Source of the DNA: an uncultured Chloroflexia bacterium
Lineage (GTDB): Bacteria; Chloroflexota; Limnocylindria; QHBO01
Assembly: GCA_963840145.1 (NCBI GenBank)
Contig: CAWIXR010000001.1
Coordinates: forward strand, 42,327 to 106,326
Length of the DNA: 64,000 nt
Reading direction: 5' to 3'
Shown here: positions 20,328 to 28,688 of the stretch, one piece after another
How positions within the stretch are numbered: the first letter of the stretch is position 1
How the letters are laid out: every line of letters starts with the position of its first letter
The notes under the pieces: model-generated
Database searches by the model: none
What the model saw: only the letters and a program-made list of their open reading frames with translations
Told to the model about the DNA's origin: nothing
Position numbers and translations under genes: made by a program

Positions 20328-21313
20328 TAGAGCTGCTGGTACGTGGCGAGGAAGAGGCTGAAGCCGAGCAGCCCGGCGAGCGCCGCGACGATCCAGAAGC
20401 GCAGCGTGATCTTCTCCTCCGCCCAGCCGATGAGCTCGAAGTGGTGGTGCAGCGGCGTCATGCGGAAGATGCGGCGCCCGCGGAAGCGGTAGCTGAGCAC
20501 CTGGATGACCACGCTCATGATCACGGCGAAGAAGACGATCCCGACGACCGCCAGGAGCGGCAGCTGGCCGTTCACGGTGGCGACGACTGCCAGCGTGGCG
20601 CCGAGGCTCAGCGACCCGGAGTCGCCCATGAAGATCTGGGCCGGGTGGACGTTGAACCAGAGGAAGCCCATCAGCGCACCGATGACGAGCGCGCAGAACA
20701 CCGCCAGCTCCGGGTGCGCGAGCTTGATGTCGGCGACCGGGACGAGGCTGATCAGCAGGTAGGCGACGAAGCTGAAGATGAGGACGCCGCCGGCGAGCCC
20801 GTCGAGGCCATCGGTCAGGTTCACCGCGTTGCTGGTGCCGACGATGACGAACGCGATGAAGCCGATGAGCAGGACCGGCGCCACCTCGATCTGGCCGACG
20901 AGCGGGATGTTCACGCCGGTCAGGTGGTAGTGGCTCCAGATGTAGACCGCGGCGAGGACCGCGACCCCGGTCTGCCACACGAGCTTCCAGCGGCCGCGCA
21001 TGCCGACGCCGCTGCGGACGTTCACGAAGTCGTCGATCGCGCCGAGGATGCCGACCCCGACCAATGTCAGCATCGGCGTCAGCGTGGCCGGACTCTCGAG
21101 TCGCAGGGCCATCGCCAGGAAGAGGACGACGACCACGACGAGCATGCCGCCCATCGTCGGCGTGCCGGCCTTGCCGTAGTGCGCCTCCGGCCCGTCGCTG
21201 CGGATCTGCTTTCCGTAGCCGAGGCGCTGGAGCAGGTTGATGTAGATCGGCGCCAGGATCACCAGGCCGACGAAGGCCAGCAGCAGCGCGACGACCATGT
21301 CGATGAGGTTCAC
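20327..21313 (-). CDS. mraY: phospho-N-acetylmuramoyl-pentapeptide transferase
   Basis: 328 aa, 10-TM MraY with the DD…D and HHH motifs (…TPLHHHFELIGW…). Confidence 0.95.
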   Translation of the reverse strand: MNLIDMVVALLLAFVGLVILAPIYINLLQRLGYGKQIRSDGPEAHYGKAGTPTMGGMLVVVVVLFLAMALRLESPATLTPMLTLVGVGILGAIDDFVNVRSGVGMRGRWKLVWQTGVAVLAAVYIWSHYHLTGVNIPLVGQIEVAPVLLIGFIAFVIVGTSNAVNLTDGLDGLAGGVLIFSFVAYLLISLVPVADIKLAHPELAVFCALVIGALMGFLWFNVHPAQIFMGDSGSLSLGATLAVVATVNGQLPLLAVVGIVFFAVIMSVVIQVLSYRFRGRRIFRMTPLHHHFELIGWAEEKITLRFWIVAALAGLLGFSLFLATYQQL

Positions 21314-22749
21314 GGCGCGCTCCCCCGCAGCAGGTCGACGGCCCGGTCGAGACCGATGCCACGCGAGCCCTTCAGCAGCACGACGTCCCCAACCCCGGGC
21401 GCGACCTCGCGCTCAAGGACCGCGACCGCCTCCTCGGCGTCCGCCGCGCTCGCGACCGGGATGGCATCGGCGCCCTCCGCGATCCAGGCGCCACGCGGCC
21501 CCACGGTGACGAGCATGTCCACGGCGGCCGCCGCCCTAGCGCCGATCTCGCGATGCAGCCGCTCCTCGTCCGGGCCAAGCTCGAGCATGTCGCCGAGCAC
21601 CGCGATCCGCCGGCGGCCGGCCGGCAGCGGAGTCTCGGCCAGGAAGTCGAGCGCGGCGGCGACGCTGACAGGCGACGCGTTGTAGGTGTCGTCGACGAGC
21701 GTCGCGCCGGAGGCGGCCTCGACGACCTGCATGCGATGGGCGGCCCGGCTGCCCGCCCCAAGCGCTTCCGCGGCGTCGTCGATCCCGATCCCCAGCCGCT
21801 CGGCGACGGCAAGGGCGGCCAGGGCATGCGGGACGAGGTGGCGGCCGGGGGTCCCGCTGCGCATTCGCCGCGTGGTCCACGGCGCGCGGACCGTGAATTC
21901 GGTGCCGGCCAGGCCGTGGCTGACGACGTCGGTTGCGCCGACGTCGGCCGACGGGCCGAGCCCGAACGTCCGCACCGCGGCCGGCGTCACCTGCGCCATG
22001 GCCGCGACGCGCGGGTCGTCCGCATTCAGCACGGCCAGGCCGTCGCGCGGCAGCGCGGCGGGGAGCTCGGCCTTGGCGGCCGCGATGCGCTCGATGCTGC
22101 CGGCGCGCTCGAGGTGCGTCGGGTGGACCGCAAGCACGACACCGACCTCCGGCCGGGCGATCTCCGCAAGCAGTGCGATCTCGCCGACGGTGTACATGCT
22201 CATCTCGAGCACGGCAGCCTCGTGGGACGGCTCGAGCCGCAGGAGCGTGATCGGCAGGCCGGTCTCCGAGTTGAGGTTGCCGTCGTTGCGCAGCGTGGTG
22301 AGGCCGCGCGACAGGACGTCGGCGGTGATCTCCTTGGCGATCGTCTTGCCCGTCGAACCGGTGATACCCACCACACGCACCGCGTGGCGAGACCGCCACC
22401 AAGCGGCGAGATCCTGGAGCGCGCGAAGCGCATCGGCCACGACGACCTGCGGGGCGGAGCGGAGGTCCTGCGGCAGGTCGATCGGCCGCTCGACGAGGGT
22501 GGCCGCGGCTCCGGCGCGGAGCGCATCGGCCACGAAGGCATGGCCGTCCGCGCGCTCACCTGGGAGCGCGACGAAGATGGAGCCGGGGGTGACGCGGCGC
22601 GAGTCGACCGACGCGCCGGTGATCGAGAACGAGGCCGCCGGAGCTGGCCCGTGCAGCCGGCCGCCGGTCGTGGCGAGCACGTCCTCGAGGCGGATGGTGG
22701 GAGGCACGCGCACCCCGCTGCGGACTTCGTTCGAGTCTAGCAAGGTCAC
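21310..22749 (-). CDS. murF: UDP-N-acetylmuramoyl-tripeptide--D-alanyl-D-alanine ligase
   Basis: GITGSTGKT P-loop and the MurF-specific NDGNLNSETGLP motif. Confidence 0.9.
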   Translation of the reverse strand: MTLLDSNEVRSGVRVPPTIRLEDVLATTGGRLHGPAPAASFSITGASVDSRRVTPGSIFVALPGERADGHAFVADALRAGAAATLVERPIDLPQDLRSAPQVVVADALRALQDLAAWWRSRHAVRVVGITGSTGKTIAKEITADVLSRGLTTLRNDGNLNSETGLPITLLRLEPSHEAAVLEMSMYTVGEIALLAEIARPEVGVVLAVHPTHLERAGSIERIAAAKAELPAALPRDGLAVLNADDPRVAAMAQVTPAAVRTFGLGPSADVGATDVVSHGLAGTEFTVRAPWTTRRMRSGTPGRHLVPHALAALAVAERLGIGIDDAAEALGAGSRAAHRMQVVEAASGATLVDDTYNASPVSVAAALDFLAETPLPAGRRRIAVLGDMLELGPDEERLHREIGARAAAAVDMLVTVGPRGAWIAEGADAIPVASAADAEEAVAVLEREVAPGVGDVVLLKGSRGIGLDRAVDLLRGSAP

Positions 22750-24536
22750 GGCTGTGCGACCGGCTCGGCGGGCCGGTCCGGCGGGATGGCGAGGTAGTCG
22801 AGCACCTGGGGCATGAGGCGGGCGTACACGTTCTCCGGGCGATCGGGCATGGTGCGTCCACCGGCGCCGGCCGGTCGATGGATGAGGACGAGCGTCACCA
22901 GCTTCCTGTCACCCGCCGGGAGGATGCCGACGAAGCTCGAGTCGACCCAGCCCTCGCGGTAGACCCAGCGCTCCACGAGCTGGCCGTCCGGGCCCTCGAC
23001 CATGATCGGTGCGGCGATCTGGGCGGTGCCCGTCTTGCCGGCCACGGTGTAGCCGGCCACCTGGGCGCCGGTCGCGATGCCGTCGTCGATCGCGTTCGTG
23101 AGCAGCTCGATCATCGTCTGGGCCGTCTCCTCCCGCATGATCCGCTCCGCGGGCGGCTGCGCGGCCTCATGGAACGTGCCATCCGGGTCGGTCCAGCCGG
23201 CGACCACGTGTGGGGTCACCAGCTCACCCCCGTTCGCGAAGGCCGCGTAGCCCGCGACGAGCTGGACGGCCGTCAGGCTCAGCCCCTGCCCGAACGAGTT
23301 CTGGGCGGCGGTCAGGTCGCCGCTGGCGTTCGCGCCGTCGGGGTCCCACACCACCCCGCTCGCCTCGCCGGCCAGCTCGATGCCGGTCTGCGCGCCGAAT
23401 CCGAAGCGCAGCAACGCCTCGTACAGCTCTCGGCGCCCGAGCTCGAGGCCGATCTTCGCGGCGCCGACGTTGTTCGATAGCGCCAGCACATCGGCCGCCG
23501 TGACGGGCCCGTGGCCGTACGGGCGGTCCCAGCGGTCGGCATTCTGGATGCGGATGACGCCGACGCGCAGGTTGTTGTCGTCGAGGAAGGTGTCATCGGT
23601 GTCGATCGCCCCGGCGTCGAGCGCGGCGGCCACGGTGAAGGCCTTCATCACCGATCCGGGCTCGTACTGCCGCGCAACCGCCGGGTTGCTGAACAGCTCG
23701 CCGTCGGTGACGGCGAAGTCGTTGGCGTCGTACGACGGGTAGCTGGCCATCGCCAGGATCGCGCCGGTCTCGGCGTCCATGATCACGCCGGTCGCGCCTG
23801 CCGCGCGATTCATCCGGTAGGTGTCCCAGATCTCCTGCTCGAGCATGTGCTGGACGCCGAGGTCGATCGTGAGGCTGAGGTCGGCGCCGTCGACCGGCTC
23901 GAGGAGCAGCGTCGCGGAGTCCGCGATCCTCCGGCCGATGACGTCCTCCTGCGCGCTCACCGCGCCAGGCGTCCCAGCCAGCAGCGCGTTCTCGCCGGCC
24001 TCGATCCCGTACTGGCCATGCCCGTCGACGTCGACGAAGCCGAGCAGCTGGGCCGCCAGCGTCGTGTCGTTGGCGACGCCCTGGACCGGGTAGACGCGCT
24101 GCGTCTCGGGCAGCAGGCCGATGCCGCGCAGGTCGAGCGAACGGATCCGCTCAGCCGCCTCTGGCGTGATGCGCCGCTTGAGCCAGACCCAGTCGCGCTC
24201 GCCGTCGAGGCTGGCGCGAAGCTGGGCCGAGGAGATGTCGAGGATCGGCGCGAGGATCCGCGCCGTCTTCCCCGGGTCGTCGATCAGCGGCGGGGTGGCG
24301 AAAACCGACTGCAGCTCGATCGAGGTGGCCAGCAGCGCCCCGTTGGCATCGGTGATCTCGCCACGCTCGGCCGGGATCTGCTCCTGCTGCGAGAGCTGGC
24401 CGAGCGCCATCGTCGACAGCCACGGCTGCTGGACGACCTGCCACCAGACGAGGCGCGCGCCGATCGCCGTCGCCACGAATGCGACGAGGATGAGGAGGAC
24501 CATGGCGCGGGCACGGCTGTCGGTCCTGGCGAGCAT
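22746..24536 (-). CDS. ftsI: penicillin-binding protein 2x / FtsI (peptidoglycan D,D-transpeptidase)
   Basis: N-terminal TM, PBP dimerisation domain, and transpeptidase motifs (SVMK…, SNN, KTGT). Confidence 0.9.
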   Translation of the reverse strand: MLARTDSRARAMVLLILVAFVATAIGARLVWWQVVQQPWLSTMALGQLSQQEQIPAERGEITDANGALLATSIELQSVFATPPLIDDPGKTARILAPILDISSAQLRASLDGERDWVWLKRRITPEAAERIRSLDLRGIGLLPETQRVYPVQGVANDTTLAAQLLGFVDVDGHGQYGIEAGENALLAGTPGAVSAQEDVIGRRIADSATLLLEPVDGADLSLTIDLGVQHMLEQEIWDTYRMNRAAGATGVIMDAETGAILAMASYPSYDANDFAVTDGELFSNPAVARQYEPGSVMKAFTVAAALDAGAIDTDDTFLDDNNLRVGVIRIQNADRWDRPYGHGPVTAADVLALSNNVGAAKIGLELGRRELYEALLRFGFGAQTGIELAGEASGVVWDPDGANASGDLTAAQNSFGQGLSLTAVQLVAGYAAFANGGELVTPHVVAGWTDPDGTFHEAAQPPAERIMREETAQTMIELLTNAIDDGIATGAQVAGYTVAGKTGTAQIAAPIMVEGPDGQLVERWVYREGWVDSSFVGILPAGDRKLVTLVLIHRPAGAGGRTMPDRPENVYARLMPQVLDYLAIPPDRPAEPVAQP

Positions 24537-24579
24537 GTCGGTCTCCGTGCTGCGGCCGCGTTCGGCCGCGTGAGATGGG

Positions 24580-24993
24580 TCAATCGGCGGACGTATCCGC
24601 GGGCTTGGCGAACGTGACGGCCGCGCCGTCGAGGTGCTGAAGGCCGAGCTGGAAGCGCGCGCGCCGGATGATCTCCGCCGGCGAGCGGGCCTGCGCGACC
24701 GCGGTGATCAGCTGCTGCTGCTCGGCGCGGCGATCGGCCAGGCTGAGGGCGAGGTTGTCGATCTCGTAGCCGCGTGCAGCGACGCCGGTCGATTGGCTGA
24801 GGTAGAAGATGGCGAGGGCGGCGGCGACCACGATCGCCACCAGGAACGGCCGAACGTCAACCGATGCGGCCAGCCGGATGCGGCCCGCGCGACGCGTTCG
24901 GCGCGCGGGGCGGCTGGCCTTGCGGCTTCGGACTCGCGACCGCCCGCCCAGAAACCACGGGCTCGTGGCGGGTCGGGCGCCCATGACGGCCAT
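24580..24993 (-). CDS. ftsL: cell division protein FtsL-like (basic N-terminus, single TM, coiled coil)
   Basis: Position between rsmH and ftsI. TM segment FLVAIVVAAALAIFYL followed by a heptad-like region. Confidence 0.65.
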   Translation of the reverse strand: MAVMGARPATSPWFLGGRSRVRSRKASRPARRTRRAGRIRLAASVDVRPFLVAIVVAAALAIFYLSQSTGVAARGYEIDNLALSLADRRAEQQQLITAVAQARSPAEIIRRARFQLGLQHLDGAAVTFAKPADTSAD

Positions 24994-25017
24994 TGCTCGG
25001 TACCCCTCGGTCGGTGA

Positions 25018-25230
25018 CTAGGCCGCGGTCGCGCGGCGGCGGGCCGAGATGGCGAAGGTGGTCGGCGCCTCGAAGTTGGCACCCTCCTCGATCTCGATGG
25101 CAGCGACCTGGTCGCTGAGCCAGTAGGCCTCCTCGCTCGCCGCGCGAAGGCGCCGCTCGCGAAGGTCGCGCTGCCGAGCCGAATACATCCGGCGGCGGCT
25201 GGCCTGGTGACGCGTACGTCCCTTGCTCAC
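25018..25230 (-). CDS. small hypothetical protein (70 aa) between rsmH and ftsL
   Basis: Track ORF with high GC3, consistent with coding. Basic N-terminus, acidic C-terminus. No recognisable family. Confidence 0.4.
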   Translation of the reverse strand: MSKGRTRHQASRRRMYSARQRDLRERRLRAASEEAYWLSDQVAAIEIEEGANFEAPTTFAISARRRATAA

Positions 25231-25259
25231 TCGGGTGACCCTCCTGCTCGTGCTCGCGC

Positions 25260-26219
25260 CTACGCGAGCTTCTCGGCGACGCGCAGCTTCGCGCTGCGCG
25301 CGCGGCGATTCCGCCGGACCTCGTCTGGGCCCGCGGTGACGACGCCCTTGGTGATCGCGCGCAGCTGCGCGCGGTGGCCGCAGGTGCAGACCGGCGGCAA
25401 CGGATCCTCGATGCAGTCGCGGCTCTCGCGAGCGACGAAGCGCTTGACGATCCGGTCCTCGAGGCTGTGATAGCTGATGACGGCCATCCGGCCGCCGGGT
25501 CGGAGCGCGGCGAGCGCGCCGGCCAGGCCCGACGAGAGGACCTCCACCTCGCGGTTGACCGCGATGCGCAGCGCCTGGAAGGTCCGGGTTGCCGGGTGGA
25601 TGCGGCCGGCATCGGCGCCGCCCGGGCGCGAGGGCGAGGCCGCGGCGACGACCGACGCCAGGTCGGCGGCGGTCACGAGCCGACCCTCCGCGCGCGCCGC
25701 CACGATCGCCTTCGCGATGCGGCCTGCACGGCGCTCTTCACCAAACGTCGCGAGGATTCCGGCGAGCTCTCGCTCCGAGGAGCGGTCGATGAGCTCGAGA
25801 GCCGATACACCACTGGTTTCATCGAATCTCATGTCCGGCGGCGCATCGGCCGCAAAGCTGAATCCCCGGCCGGGATCGGCAAGCTGGTAGCTGCTGAGGC
25901 CGAGGTCGAAGAGAACGCCGTCCAGTGGCGCCACGCCGGAGGCGATCGCCGCGTCGTAGATCGCCTCGAAGTTGGCGTGGCGCAGCACGACCCGGTCACC
26001 AAATGGGGCCAGCACGGAGGTCGCCTCCGCGATGGCCGCCCGGTCGGCATCGATGCCGAGCAGGCGGCCATGCGGAGACGTCGCCTCCAGAATCCGCTCG
26101 GCGTGCCCACCGCCGCCGACCGTGCAGTCCGCCACGGAGCTGCCAGGACCCAGCGCGAGCGAGGCAATGACCTCGTCGACCAGGACCGGCAGGTGCCCTT
26201 CTCCCATGGCGCGTCGCAC
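25260..26219 (-). CDS. rsmH: 16S rRNA (cytosine1402-N4)-methyltransferase
   Basis: HLPVLVDEV…DCTVGGGGHAERIL… SAM-binding motifs typical of MraW/RsmH. Confidence 0.92.
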   Translation of the reverse strand: MRRAMGEGHLPVLVDEVIASLALGPGSSVADCTVGGGGHAERILEATSPHGRLLGIDADRAAIAEATSVLAPFGDRVVLRHANFEAIYDAAIASGVAPLDGVLFDLGLSSYQLADPGRGFSFAADAPPDMRFDETSGVSALELIDRSSERELAGILATFGEERRAGRIAKAIVAARAEGRLVTAADLASVVAAASPSRPGGADAGRIHPATRTFQALRIAVNREVEVLSSGLAGALAALRPGGRMAVISYHSLEDRIVKRFVARESRDCIEDPLPPVCTCGHRAQLRAITKGVVTAGPDEVRRNRRARSAKLRVAEKLA

Positions 26220-26277
26220 CTCTGTTGTCGAACGGCGGGCCGACCGGCCCGGAGACGCATGAATGGCCGGGGCACCG

Positions 26278-26727
26278 TCAGATGCCCAGGTCGGCGAGGT
26301 GCTCGGCGAGCGCCTCCGGCTCGTTCTCGATCTGGGACCGATACGGTCCCCACCGCGTCGGCGCCCAGATCTCGAGTCGGTTCAGCGCGCCGACCACGAC
26401 CACCTCGCTCTCGGTCAGGCCGGCGTACTCGCGGAGATAGCTCGGGACGAGGACCCGCCCCTGGCGATCGAGCTCCACCTCGACCGCCCCCGAGCTCATG
26501 AAGCGGCCGAACTGTCGCGCGGCCGCGTTTGTCGTCGGCAGGCCCTGGATTCGGGCCGCCAGCTCTTCCCAGGTGTCCGACGGAAAGATCGCCAGGCAGC
26601 CATCCAGCCAGCGCGCCAGCGTGGCGCCCTGTGCCAGCCGCGGGCGGAAGCGGACCGGGACCGCCACTCGGCCCCGATCGTCCAGTGCGTGCCGGAACTC
26701 CCCGGTGAGGAAGGTCGCCCGCTCCAT
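26278..26727 (-). CDS. mraZ: transcriptional regulator MraZ
   Basis: 149 aa with the duplicated MraZ fold motifs (…DDRGRVAVP…, …DRQGRVLVP…). Confidence 0.92.
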   Translation of the reverse strand: MERATFLTGEFRHALDDRGRVAVPVRFRPRLAQGATLARWLDGCLAIFPSDTWEELAARIQGLPTTNAAARQFGRFMSSGAVEVELDRQGRVLVPSYLREYAGLTESEVVVVGALNRLEIWAPTRWGPYRSQIENEPEALAEHLADLGI

Positions 26728-26740
26728 CTGGCCTGTCTTT

Positions 26741-26770
26741 CACCACTAGTCCCCATTTGGCCCCATTTGG
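26741..26770 (-). promoter_or_regulatory. MraZ operator: three direct repeats with 10-bp phasing (ccaaaTGGGG / ccaaaTGGGG / actagTGGTG on the minus strand)
   Basis: Read directly. Lies between the predicted Pmra -10 and the mraZ start, as in E. coli, where MraZ binds TGGGN direct repeats. Confidence 0.6.
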
Positions 26771-26784
26771 AACCACAGGGCGCC

Positions 26785-26813
26785 ACTATACAGGTCGCAA
26801 GGTGCCCGTCAAG
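26785..26813 (-). promoter_or_regulatory. Pmra-like sigma-70 promoter: -35 TTGACG (complement 26808-26813), 17-nt spacer, -10 TATAGT (complement 26785-26790)
   Basis: Read directly on the minus strand: ccccTTGACGggcaccttgcgacctgTATAGTggcg. Confidence 0.55.
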
Positions 26814-26943
26814 GGGTTTTGCGCATCGGCGCATGGGAGATTTCGGCCAGGACGCCTGCGGGCGCCGCCCGACAGATCGGGCAAGTGGAGCGAGCGAGGC
26901 TTCCTGCGGGACTCCGCCCGATGGATCGGCCGAGAGCGCCGGT

Positions 26944-27903
26944 CTACGGAGCCGGGGTCGCCTCGGGAAACTCGGTCAGCTCGTCCTCGGAGAGGTAGGC
27001 GGAGCGTCGCTCCCCGTCGGAATTGAGGAAGACGGCACGGACCCGGAAGGGGCCGGAATCGGGATAGAGGTACGACCAGCCCTCGAGGCCGCCCTCCGCG
27101 GTCTCCCAGAACACCGGTTCGTCGGCGCCGCGGCGCGGGACGGCGCGCGCATACGAGAACCCGCCGAACGATGCGTCGCGCTGGCCGATGACCTCGCCGT
27201 CGTCGTTGAGCAGGTACAGCGTGTAGCCCTCCGGACCGACCGAGACCTCGTAGAACTCGAAGGTGTCGCCCGACTGGGGAGTCGGCTCCGGAGTGGGCGT
27301 GGCCGGGCCGGAGCCCGAGGCGCTCGTCGGTTCCGCGGTCGGCTCGACGGTGGCGGTCGGGGCGGAGGTGCTGGACGGCGTCGGCTCTGACGTCACCACC
27401 GGCGTCGGCGATGGCGAGCTCGACTCGACCGCCACGGGCGGGAAGAGCCCGCGACCCCAGATCAGGTATCCGACCGCGCCACCACCGATCAGCAGGAGGA
27501 GCAGCAGGAGGAGAATCGGGACAGCGCGGCGTCGCCGCCGCCTGGCGGGAACCGCTGCCGGGCGCGGCGGCTCGGCGAGCGGCGCGCGTGGACGGCGGAG
27601 CGCCTCGAGCTCCTCCGTCGGGATGACCAGCACGCCGCGCAGATAGCGTGGGCAGTTGCCGTACCCGCGCTCCTGGCAGACCCGCGTCTGCTGCTCGGCC
27701 GAAAGCGGCGCGGGATCGCCGAACGCGTAGCAGCGATGGTCGTCGCTGATGCCCTCGATGTATCCGGCGCGCTCCCCCGCCAGGCCGAGGAAGGGGCAGA
27801 CGTGCTCGGGGCGCTCCGCCAGCTGGGCGAACAGGGCGTGGCGCTCAGCCTCGCGAGCCGCCTCCGCGGCCGCCTCCTCCCGGCGCTTGCGTCGACCGAA
27901 CAC
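26944..27903 (-). CDS. membrane protein: N-terminal cytoplasmic Cys4 domain, single TM (poly-Leu), Pro/Ser/Thr-rich linker, ~130-aa extracytoplasmic domain
   Basis: Start chosen at the GTG preceded by AGGAGGTG. Cys motif: CPFLG…HRCYAFGD…CQERGYGNCPRY. TM segment AVPILLLLLLLLIGGGAVGYLIW. The longer track ORF (to 28299) would run into rnpB. Confidence 0.6.
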   Translation of the reverse strand: MFGRRKRREEAAAEAAREAERHALFAQLAERPEHVCPFLGLAGERAGYIEGISDDHRCYAFGDPAPLSAEQQTRVCQERGYGNCPRYLRGVLVIPTEELEALRRPRAPLAEPPRPAAVPARRRRRRAVPILLLLLLLLIGGGAVGYLIWGRGLFPPVAVESSSPSPTPVVTSEPTPSSTSAPTATVEPTAEPTSASGSGPATPTPEPTPQSGDTFEFYEVSVGPEGYTLYLLNDDGEVIGQRDASFGGFSYARAVPRRGADEPVFWETAEGGLEGWSYLYPDSGPFRVRAVFLNSDGERRSAYLSEDELTEFPEATPAP

Positions 27904-28338
27904 GGCACCTCCTGGCGTGGCAGCAGCACCGCGCACGCGGCAACTGAGCGTGAGTCTAGCGCGCCGGACCTCGCCGGCATCAGGGCGCAAGGCGGTGTCC
28001 GGCCGATGGTACGAACGCGCCATTGTTGACAGGACGCGACGGTCGGTAGCCTGCGCCACACGGAGTACCGACCACACGCGAGACGGGGCCACGCTGATGG
28101 CGCTGAACCCGATCGAGGGGAACGAAGCACGCCGACCGATCCCACGATCAGGTCGGATCCGGCGCTGCTCGGTGCGCCACGTGAGCATCCTCCCCGGCGA
28201 GCCGCCCTCGGTCCAGGTCGACTGCCTCCTCGGCGGCATCGAGCACCCGCTTCCGCTCGGCACGATGGACGAGGCGCGCCCGGTGTGCAACGCCTGCACG
28301 GCGAGATCGGTCTGGCGCGAGGACGAGGATTAGGCGAG

Positions 28339-28688
28339 GTCCCTGGAGAGCGGCCTGTAAGCCGAGTTCTGTCGTGAGCCGATGGATCGCCAATCGGTCA
28401 CGGACGGTCATCCATCTGTGCGACCTACCCGGGAGCTGAGCGAGCAACCTGCTGCGGCCGAAGCCGCCTTGCGCTCCCCTATTCGGTCTTGCTCCGGCTA
28501 GAGCTTGCCGCGTTTCACTCCCGCCGGCCCGGCCTCGTTGGCTGGGGGCGGGCATCGTCACTGTGGCGCTATTCCTCGCCTCACGGCGGACGGGCGTTAC
28601 CCGCTAGCCTGCTCTGAGGAGCTCGGACTTTCCTCGGACGCGGCCTTTCGACCGATGCGCCCGCGACCATCCGGCCGCCTCCAGGGAG
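28339..28688 (-). ncRNA. rnpB: RNase P RNA, bacterial type A
   Basis: Minus-strand RNA contains GAGGAAAGUCCGAGCUCC (P4 5' strand), GGGUAACGCCCG, GGGAGUGAAA, and ACAGAACUCGGCUUACAGG (P4 3' strand with compensatory CCGAG/CUCGG). P1 pairs CCCUGGAGGCGGCC…GGCCGCUCUCCAGGG. Confidence 0.9.

Follow-up and report, generated by a model that had tools for sequence, protein, structure and literature searches.

The mraZ locus and its gene neighborhood

The region of interest is a 216-bp intergenic stretch at positions 26728 to 26943 of a 64-kb window, by which we mean the whole stretch of DNA that was analyzed (64,000 nucleotides from an uncultured soil bacterium). The minus-strand end of this stretch adjoins the ATG codon of mraZ at position 26727. 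The mraZ gene (26278 to 26727, minus strand) encodes a 149-aa protein, the presumed box-binding repressor, which matched Pfam family PF02381 (3e-31) and scored above the cutoff of the NCBIfam equivalog model TIGR00242 (117.9 bits; cutoff of 98.35). The nearest MraZ proteins and loci belong to MAGs named Candidatus Limnocylindria or Chloroflexota, and the local DNA has a G+C content of ~70%.

Codirectional dcw genes, identified from the open reading frame (ORF) list and family scans, follow mraZ on the minus strand (21310 to 26219) and are presumed to be driven by the mraZ promoter. These are rsmH, also named mraW (26219 to 25260; Pfam, 3e-98), an ftsL-like gene (24993 to 24580), and a gene for a class B penicillin-binding protein (PBP; 24536 to 22746), the latter two assigned by family scan, followed by a large ORF (22749 to 21310) taken from the ORF list and considered a mur ligase by its position in the gene order. 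Since mraZ, rsmH, the ftsL-like gene, and the PBP gene occur in this order on one strand, the locus can be identified as the head of a dcw cluster. Gene order also suggests that the dcw genes after mraZ are cotranscribed with it.

Two neighboring genes lack a Pfam assignment. A 70-aa ORF (MSKGRTRHQASRRRMYSARQRDL...) on the minus strand at 25018 to 25230 takes up most of the 266 nt that separate rsmH from the ftsL-like gene. It was matched by tblastn at the same position in 73 of the 80 Limnocylindria loci described below, with 67 to 96% identity among the best 40 matches, and a Pfam search with it returned no match even at an E value of ≤1. This ORF possibly encodes an unannotated small protein of the dcw cluster. 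The gene 5′ of mraZ (26944 to 28299, minus strand) runs in the same direction as mraZ and is syntenic in 66 of the 80 loci. Conservation of its product begins mostly at residue ~104 to 130, so the true start is probably internal, at M103. In the predicted protein, a segment rich in Cys (CPFLG...HRCYA...CQERGYGNCPRY) occurs along with a hydrophobic stretch and a linker rich in Pro and Thr. The protein matched no Pfam family, and its match to the divisome protein SepX/GlpR in NCBIfam was below threshold (E = 0.006; 16.6 bits versus a cutoff of 150).

Just past the stop codon of this upstream gene, the intergenic region holds two copies of a 26-nt element (26860 to 26885 and 26909 to 26934) that are 77% identical and 49 nt apart, each with a short hairpin of the form CCCGAT-nnn-TCGGG. 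The elements have no T-run, fold no better than shuffled sequences (z = −0.92), and represent a motif with no significant enrichment in the window. They were rejected as part of the regulatory element described below, being unconserved even in loci where MraZ is 95 to 99% identical, and may represent a lineage-specific terminator-like or REP-like element.

Promoter elements and phased repeats upstream of mraZ

A scan of positions 26000 to 28400 for sigma-70-like consensus sequences returned a single match, TTGACG-16-TATAGT, which agrees with the consensus at 10 of 12 bases; shuffles of the same interval gave a mean expectation of 0.1 matches. The match comprises a −35 hexamer (TTGACG; 26812 to 26807), a 16-nt spacer (26806 to 26791), and a −10 hexamer (TATAGT; 26790 to 26785), all on the minus strand, and thereby has the form of a sigma-70 promoter, i.e., hexamers near TTGACA and TATAAT placed 16 to 18 nt apart. 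A preliminary description of this DNA had named the same two hexamers, and the minus-strand sequence that it quoted is present at the positions it gave. Its 17-nt spacer was a miscount, as both the sequence and the scan give 16 nt.

An A-tract (AAAA; 26817 to 26820, minus strand) lies 4 nt 5′ of the −35 hexamer and is a possible proximal UP-element-like contact for the alpha subunit of RNA polymerase. Based on the usual distance between −10 and +1, transcription is predicted to start within 26776 to 26780 (minus strand), 5 to 9 nt 3′ of the −10 hexamer, which would give mraZ a leader of ~49 to 53 nt. Near the end of this predicted leader, a putative weak Shine-Dalgarno-like sequence (GACAGG; 26732 to 26737, minus strand) can be read with its AGG end 4 nt 5′ of the ATG; the CAGG portion is moderately conserved, occurring in about 57 to 61 of 78 Limnocylindria loci.

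Five TGG triplets with an exact 10-bp period extend from 26785 to 26743 on the minus strand. A search of the 64-kb window for TGG-N7 repeated five times returned this one match, with 0.00 expected (none in 100 shuffles), while a search for three copies of TGGKK-N5 returned two overlapping matches that together amount to four boxes (0.01 expected by chance). The paired pattern RTGGKK-N4-RTGGKK was found in the window solely at the array upstream of mraZ (0.2 expected), and these pattern searches found no further MraZ-box pairs or triples elsewhere in the 64 kb.

All five boxes are on the minus strand. The first two bases of box 1 (GTGGCG; 26786 to 26781), which is a candidate fifth MraZ box, are also the final two of the −10 hexamer. 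Starting 8 nt beyond that hexamer, box 2 (GTGGTT; 26776 to 26771) covers the predicted transcription start. Boxes 3 and 4 (both ATGGGG; 26766 to 26761 and 26756 to 26751) each fall within a copy of CCAAATGGGG, and box 5 (GTGGTG; 26746 to 26741) was recovered both by pattern search and from the alignment of loci. The array ends 13 nt from the mraZ ATG and, relative to the predicted promoter, begins at the 3′ end of the −10 hexamer and reaches about +35. Three 10-bp-phased repeats, confined between +1 and the mraZ start, had been proposed originally. Those repeats are real (26770 to 26741, reading CCAAATGGGG, CCAAATGGGG, and ACTAGTGGTG, the first two being an exact 10-bp tandem), but they are the last three members of a longer array of four or five boxes, and the proposed boundary does not hold, with box 1 overlapping the −10 hexamer and box 2 located at the predicted start.

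The box core is the canonical GTGG in three of the five boxes and departs from it as ATGG in the other two (boxes 3 and 4), and the triplet TG(T/G), which is contacted by MraZ in a cryo-electron microscopy (cryo-EM) structure (PMC12957436), is present in all five. The array thus combines at least three direct repeats with a GTG(G/T) or TGGGN core at a 10-bp period, as in MraZ operators, and, also as in those operators, it lies directly 5′ of mraZ, the first dcw gene. We describe it as four boxes, probably five, with the core R-TGG-K-K.

Two further candidate boxes were rejected. The sequence GATGGAG at the start codon would be a sixth box, but its TGG is one base out of phase, at offset +64 rather than +65, and the ATG together with a Glu/Asp codon accounts for the conservation seen there. 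A box 5′ of the −10 hexamer would require a T at offset −5, where C or G is found. A third exact copy of CCAAATGGGG occurs at 25999 to 26008 on the plus strand, inside rsmH and thus on the opposite strand, where it is isolated. With up to one mismatch allowed, this 10-mer had four matches versus 1.39 expected, a number reached in 5 of 100 shuffles, and the copy within rsmH is probably a chance match.

Conservation of the promoter and repeats across Limnocylindria

A single scan of species-representative genomes yielded 80 loci from close relatives within Limnocylindria, with MraZ proteins 79 to 99% identical to that of the window. The DNA 5′ of each mraZ was extracted and anchored on the −10 hexamer, and the 78 loci with enough upstream sequence were used for comparison. 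Of the 80 loci, 79 contained a single instance of the five-fold TGG-N7 pattern, in each case immediately upstream of mraZ; the remaining locus, L011, is truncated and has 18 nt of upstream sequence. The same five-fold pattern is absent from Escherichia coli.

Comparison with orthologous mraZ upstream regions, a check named in the preliminary description, bore out both promoter and repeats. The −35 hexamer TTGACG, the 16-nt length of the spacer, and TGG triplets at +5, +15, +25, +35, and +45 from the start of the −10 hexamer were found in all 78 loci. The −10 hexamer itself varies within TAnnnT: T1, A2, and T6 are invariant (78/78), with TATAGT in 65 loci and TAGAAT, TATGAT, TACAAT, or TAATAT in the others. 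At columns −29 to −27, between 72 and 78 of the 78 loci keep the A-tract; column −30 is A in 63 and otherwise G. Within the spacer, the central 7 nt vary freely between conserved flanks, GG after the −35 hexamer and G..CCTG before the −10 hexamer. The latter motif (G at 26796 and CCTG at 26794 to 26791; offsets −6 to −1) is almost invariant in the 78 species and is out of phase with the MraZ boxes. An extended −10 element (TGn) was rejected as its explanation: the conserved TG abuts the hexamer with no intervening base, and the promoter scan reported no TG motif.

Conservation within the boxes is similarly strict. The base 5′ of each TGG is always a purine. TGGCG of box 1 and TGGGG of box 4 are invariant (78/78 each), as are TGGG of box 3, with its last G in 77 of 78 loci, and the TGG of boxes 2 and 5 (78/78 each), the G preceding that of box 2 being present in 76 of 78. 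Mean pairwise identity was 0.948 for the promoter hexamers and 0.925 for the boxes, compared to 0.660 for the 4 nt between boxes, 0.609 for four-fold degenerate codon sites of mraZ, 0.377 for the 7-nt spacer center, and 0.313 for the 60 nt upstream of the A-tract. The invariance of these elements against a diverged background is a clear mark of purifying selection, one that covers the hexamers, the length of the spacer, and the phased triplets.

A variant form of the region was seen in a subclade of eight loci (L066, L067, L069, L070, L072, L073, L075, and L076), whose MraZ proteins are ~80 to 83% identical to that of the window. Here the leader is 13 nt longer and includes an extra conserved sequence, (A/T)GTGCAGG(G/A)C, after box 5 that is absent from the window, and the boxes read GTGGTG / ATGGGG / (G/A)TGGGG / (G/A)TGGG(G/A).

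The same data bear on whether the promoter-like hexamers and G-rich repeats might be functionless, i.e., a chance resemblance within GC-rich intergenic DNA. All that speaks for this reading is the general caution that a consensus match is not in itself evidence of function. However, the expectations of 0.1 for the promoter and of 0.01 and 0.00 for the two multibox patterns, together with elements that are invariant in 78 species where neutral sites are ~61% and flanking DNA ~31 to 38% identical, leave chance a vanishingly small probability.

Boxes 2 to 5 lie inside the predicted 5′ untranslated region, and it could be argued that the repeats act in the transcript, as part of a structured leader (riboswitch-like, attenuator, or small RNA-binding) controlling mraZ translation or stability. 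The minimum-free-energy fold does pair box 2 (GGUUCC) with box 3 (GGGGCC), and long regulatory leaders upstream of dcw clusters exist, an example being UpsM of Rhodobacter sphaeroides (PMC5089854). However, the leader folds no better than expected (z = −0.01; 92 of 200 shuffles fold at least as well), and the consensus fold of 28 diverse sequences reached −0.76 kcal/mol with four pairs and no compensatory change. A search of Rfam returned no family even at an E value of ≤1. Strict 10-bp phasing and a box located on the untranscribed −10 hexamer also suit a DNA site rather than RNA. With single-sequence folding, covariation folding, and Rfam all negative, a structured RNA leader was rejected, and we consider its involvement very improbable.

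A G-quadruplex formed by the G-runs of the coding strand, modulating transcription alone or together with MraZ, likewise appears improbable. Such a structure has been reported downstream of the Staphylococcus aureus PmraZ promoter, with conservation in other bacteria also claimed (PMC11796246), and the G4Hunter peak of 1.32 here exceeds the lenient threshold of 1.2 and falls in the top 0.4% of 25-nt windows within this 70% GC sequence. However, the region has no four tracts of three or more Gs and would allow at most a two-quartet geometry with loops of up to 8 to 9 nt, and the loose pattern describing such a geometry (tracts of at least two Gs; loops of 1 to 9 nt) has 841 matches in the window. 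More than two consecutive Gs occur in just two of the five boxes, and a G-quadruplex leaves unexplained the invariant T before GG, the purine before that T, and the exact 10-bp period.

MraZ as the predicted reader of the array

Operators for MraZ at Pmra are known from Proteobacteria, Firmicutes, Mollicutes, and Actinobacteria as arrays of three or four boxes, three being typical and four occurring in Mycoplasma and Burkholderia. Eraso et al. reportedly described, in 2014, the E. coli Pmra promoter with three MraZ boxes, and E. coli MraZ is annotated as an autorepressor. Read directly, the E. coli K-12 sequence is TTGACA ... TAAACT, 7 nt, GTGGG-aaatt-GTGGG-gcaaa-GTGGG, and 18 nt to the ATG. 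This is the same layout as in the window, in agreement with the preliminary description: direct GTGG-type repeats with a 10-bp period, the first of them 7 to 8 nt after the −10 hexamer, and a short leader before the ATG. Boxes 2 to 4 of the window match the positions of the three E. coli boxes relative to the −10 hexamer, the first box lying 7 nt after it in E. coli and box 2 lying 8 nt after it in the window. In comparison, the promoter spacer is 18 nt in E. coli and 16 nt in the window, as read from both sequences. E. coli also has three GTGGG boxes, with a phased fourth position that reads GGGGT, whereas the window has four clear boxes plus one that merges with the −10 hexamer; boxes 1 and 5 are additional, and the two central boxes are ATGGGG rather than GTGGG.

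The MraZ box has been defined as three to four copies of GTG(G/T) with 6-nt spacers, and cryo-EM of Mycoplasma genitalium MraZ shows the “cradle” of each subunit contacting T-G-T/G via Lys13, Arg15, and Arg86 (PMC12957436). Like the array described here, that operator has more than three boxes at a 10-bp period, with the first boxes overlapping the transcription start (predicted in the window). The contacted TG(T/G) corresponds to the invariant TGG, and A-rich bases precede the core in both (AAATGG in window boxes 3 and 4; AAAGTG in Mycoplasma). The Mycoplasma boxes differ in being AAAGTGT/G in an AT-rich genome, whereas in the window TG is always followed by G and the flanks are GC rich. A fifth phased triplet overlapping the −10 hexamer also sets the window apart.

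We aligned the window MraZ with the M. genitalium chains of PDB entries 9qlr and 9qlg. D16xxxR20, D87xxxR91, and R18 align with D11, R15, D82, R86, and K13, such that the contacts K13, R15, and R86 correspond to R18, R20, and R91, with the lysine replaced by arginine. The aspartates orienting the contact arginines have D16 and D87 as their counterparts. The window MraZ therefore has the two DXXXR motifs and the third basic residue expected at the DNA contacts of an operator-binding MraZ.

Two other systems show the same architecture with experimental support. In Bacillus subtilis, three GTGG[A/T]G sites with 4-nt spacers are required for repression, the triple repeat is found at the mra promoter alone, and repression needs both DXXXR arginines (White et al. 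2022; bioRxiv 10.1101/2022.02.09.479790). The arrangement of hexamers separated by 4 nt is identical in the window, where box 5 (GTGGTG) fits the B. subtilis consensus exactly; unlike in B. subtilis, there are four or five repeats rather than three, and boxes 1 to 4 depart from GTGGWG at one to three positions. The Burkholderia cenocepacia promoter PmraBc carries four 7-nt repeats with 3-nt spacers, which lie 3′ of the −10 hexamer and extend over the transcription start, and the fragment bearing them was bound by purified MraZ when analyzed by electrophoretic mobility shift assay (EMSA) (PMC7761207). The window shares with PmraBc a 10-bp array of four repeats placed 3′ of the −10 hexamer and overlapping the (predicted) start. 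The leader is ~100 nt in B. cenocepacia, a member of a different phylum, versus a predicted ~50 nt here, and MraZ binding was demonstrated there by EMSA, whereas the window array is known from its sequence.

Conservation alone does not name the protein that reads the repeats, and it is possible that the promoter is genuine while the array serves another regulator, for example, an OmpR-family response regulator such as MtrA. Such a regulator would bind direct repeats ~10 to 11 bp apart, as MtrA does at actinobacterial mraZ promoters, one instance being the mraZ promoter region of Dietzia, which it binds (PMC9602371). However, the core, period, and placement of the boxes fit the MraZ box as experimentally defined in four phyla, and the array adjoins a gene for MraZ with intact contact residues. 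No such array was found at any other place in the window or across 270 kb of related loci, and five tandem half-sites would be atypical for a dimeric response regulator. We give another repeat-binding regulator a slim chance and regard it as much less parsimonious than MraZ. The case for MraZ as the reader rests on the match of the window to the published box definitions, to the E. coli layout, and to the contact residues.

We therefore interpret the region as a Pmra promoter with an MraZ operator that would autoregulate the head of the dcw cluster, an interpretation to which we assign a probability of roughly 0.87. Each computational test able to tell this reading, first put forward in the preliminary description, from chance or from its rivals came out in its favor. 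A housekeeping sigma factor would recognize TTGACG-16-TATAGT, possibly aided by the upstream A-tract, and transcription would start ~5 to 9 nt after the −10 hexamer, producing a leader of ~50 nt. Exact 10-bp spacing places the boxes in successive major grooves along a single face of the helix. Each box could be read by the β-sheet cradle of one MraZ subunit via R18, R20, and R91, with neighboring subunits of an opened MraZ ring binding cooperatively. The bound array would cover the −10 hexamer, the start site, and early transcribed DNA, and MraZ occupancy might block polymerase binding, open-complex formation, or promoter escape. The expected outcome would be that mraZ, rsmH, ftsL, ftsI, and the genes that follow come under negative feedback. 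The sign of this regulation is not guaranteed, since Mycoplasma gallisepticum MraZ, according to work cited in PMC12957436, acts as an activator when overexpressed.

The number of boxes affects how this mechanism would operate. Box 1 could be either a fifth MraZ box or a conserved promoter discriminator: its TGGCG follows TATAG immediately, shows no variation among the loci, and keeps the phase of the other boxes, yet it lies in the discriminator, where promoter selection would also act. A true five-box operator with its first box fused to the −10 hexamer (TATAGTGGCG) is a tentative proposal that we rate at somewhat under even odds. If it is correct, one face of ~46 bp would be occupied by five or more subunits from an opened MraZ ring, and MraZ would compete directly with sigma for the −10 element. 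The array would then be the longest MraZ operator described and would imply that the oligomer forms a larger arc than the one of four subunits seen by cryo-EM.

Taken as a whole, this is a well-conserved but ordinary feature that specialists would predict for the DNA upstream of mraZ, possibly with one box more than in any described case. Its main value lies in a very clean phylogenetic footprint across 80 species. The invariant positions are exactly the TG(G/T) contacted in the 2026 cryo-EM structure and so provide independent evolutionary support for that recognition model. The predicted MraZ autoregulatory switch is thereby extended, base by base, to Candidatus Limnocylindria, an uncultured class of Chloroflexota that is unstudied for division control.
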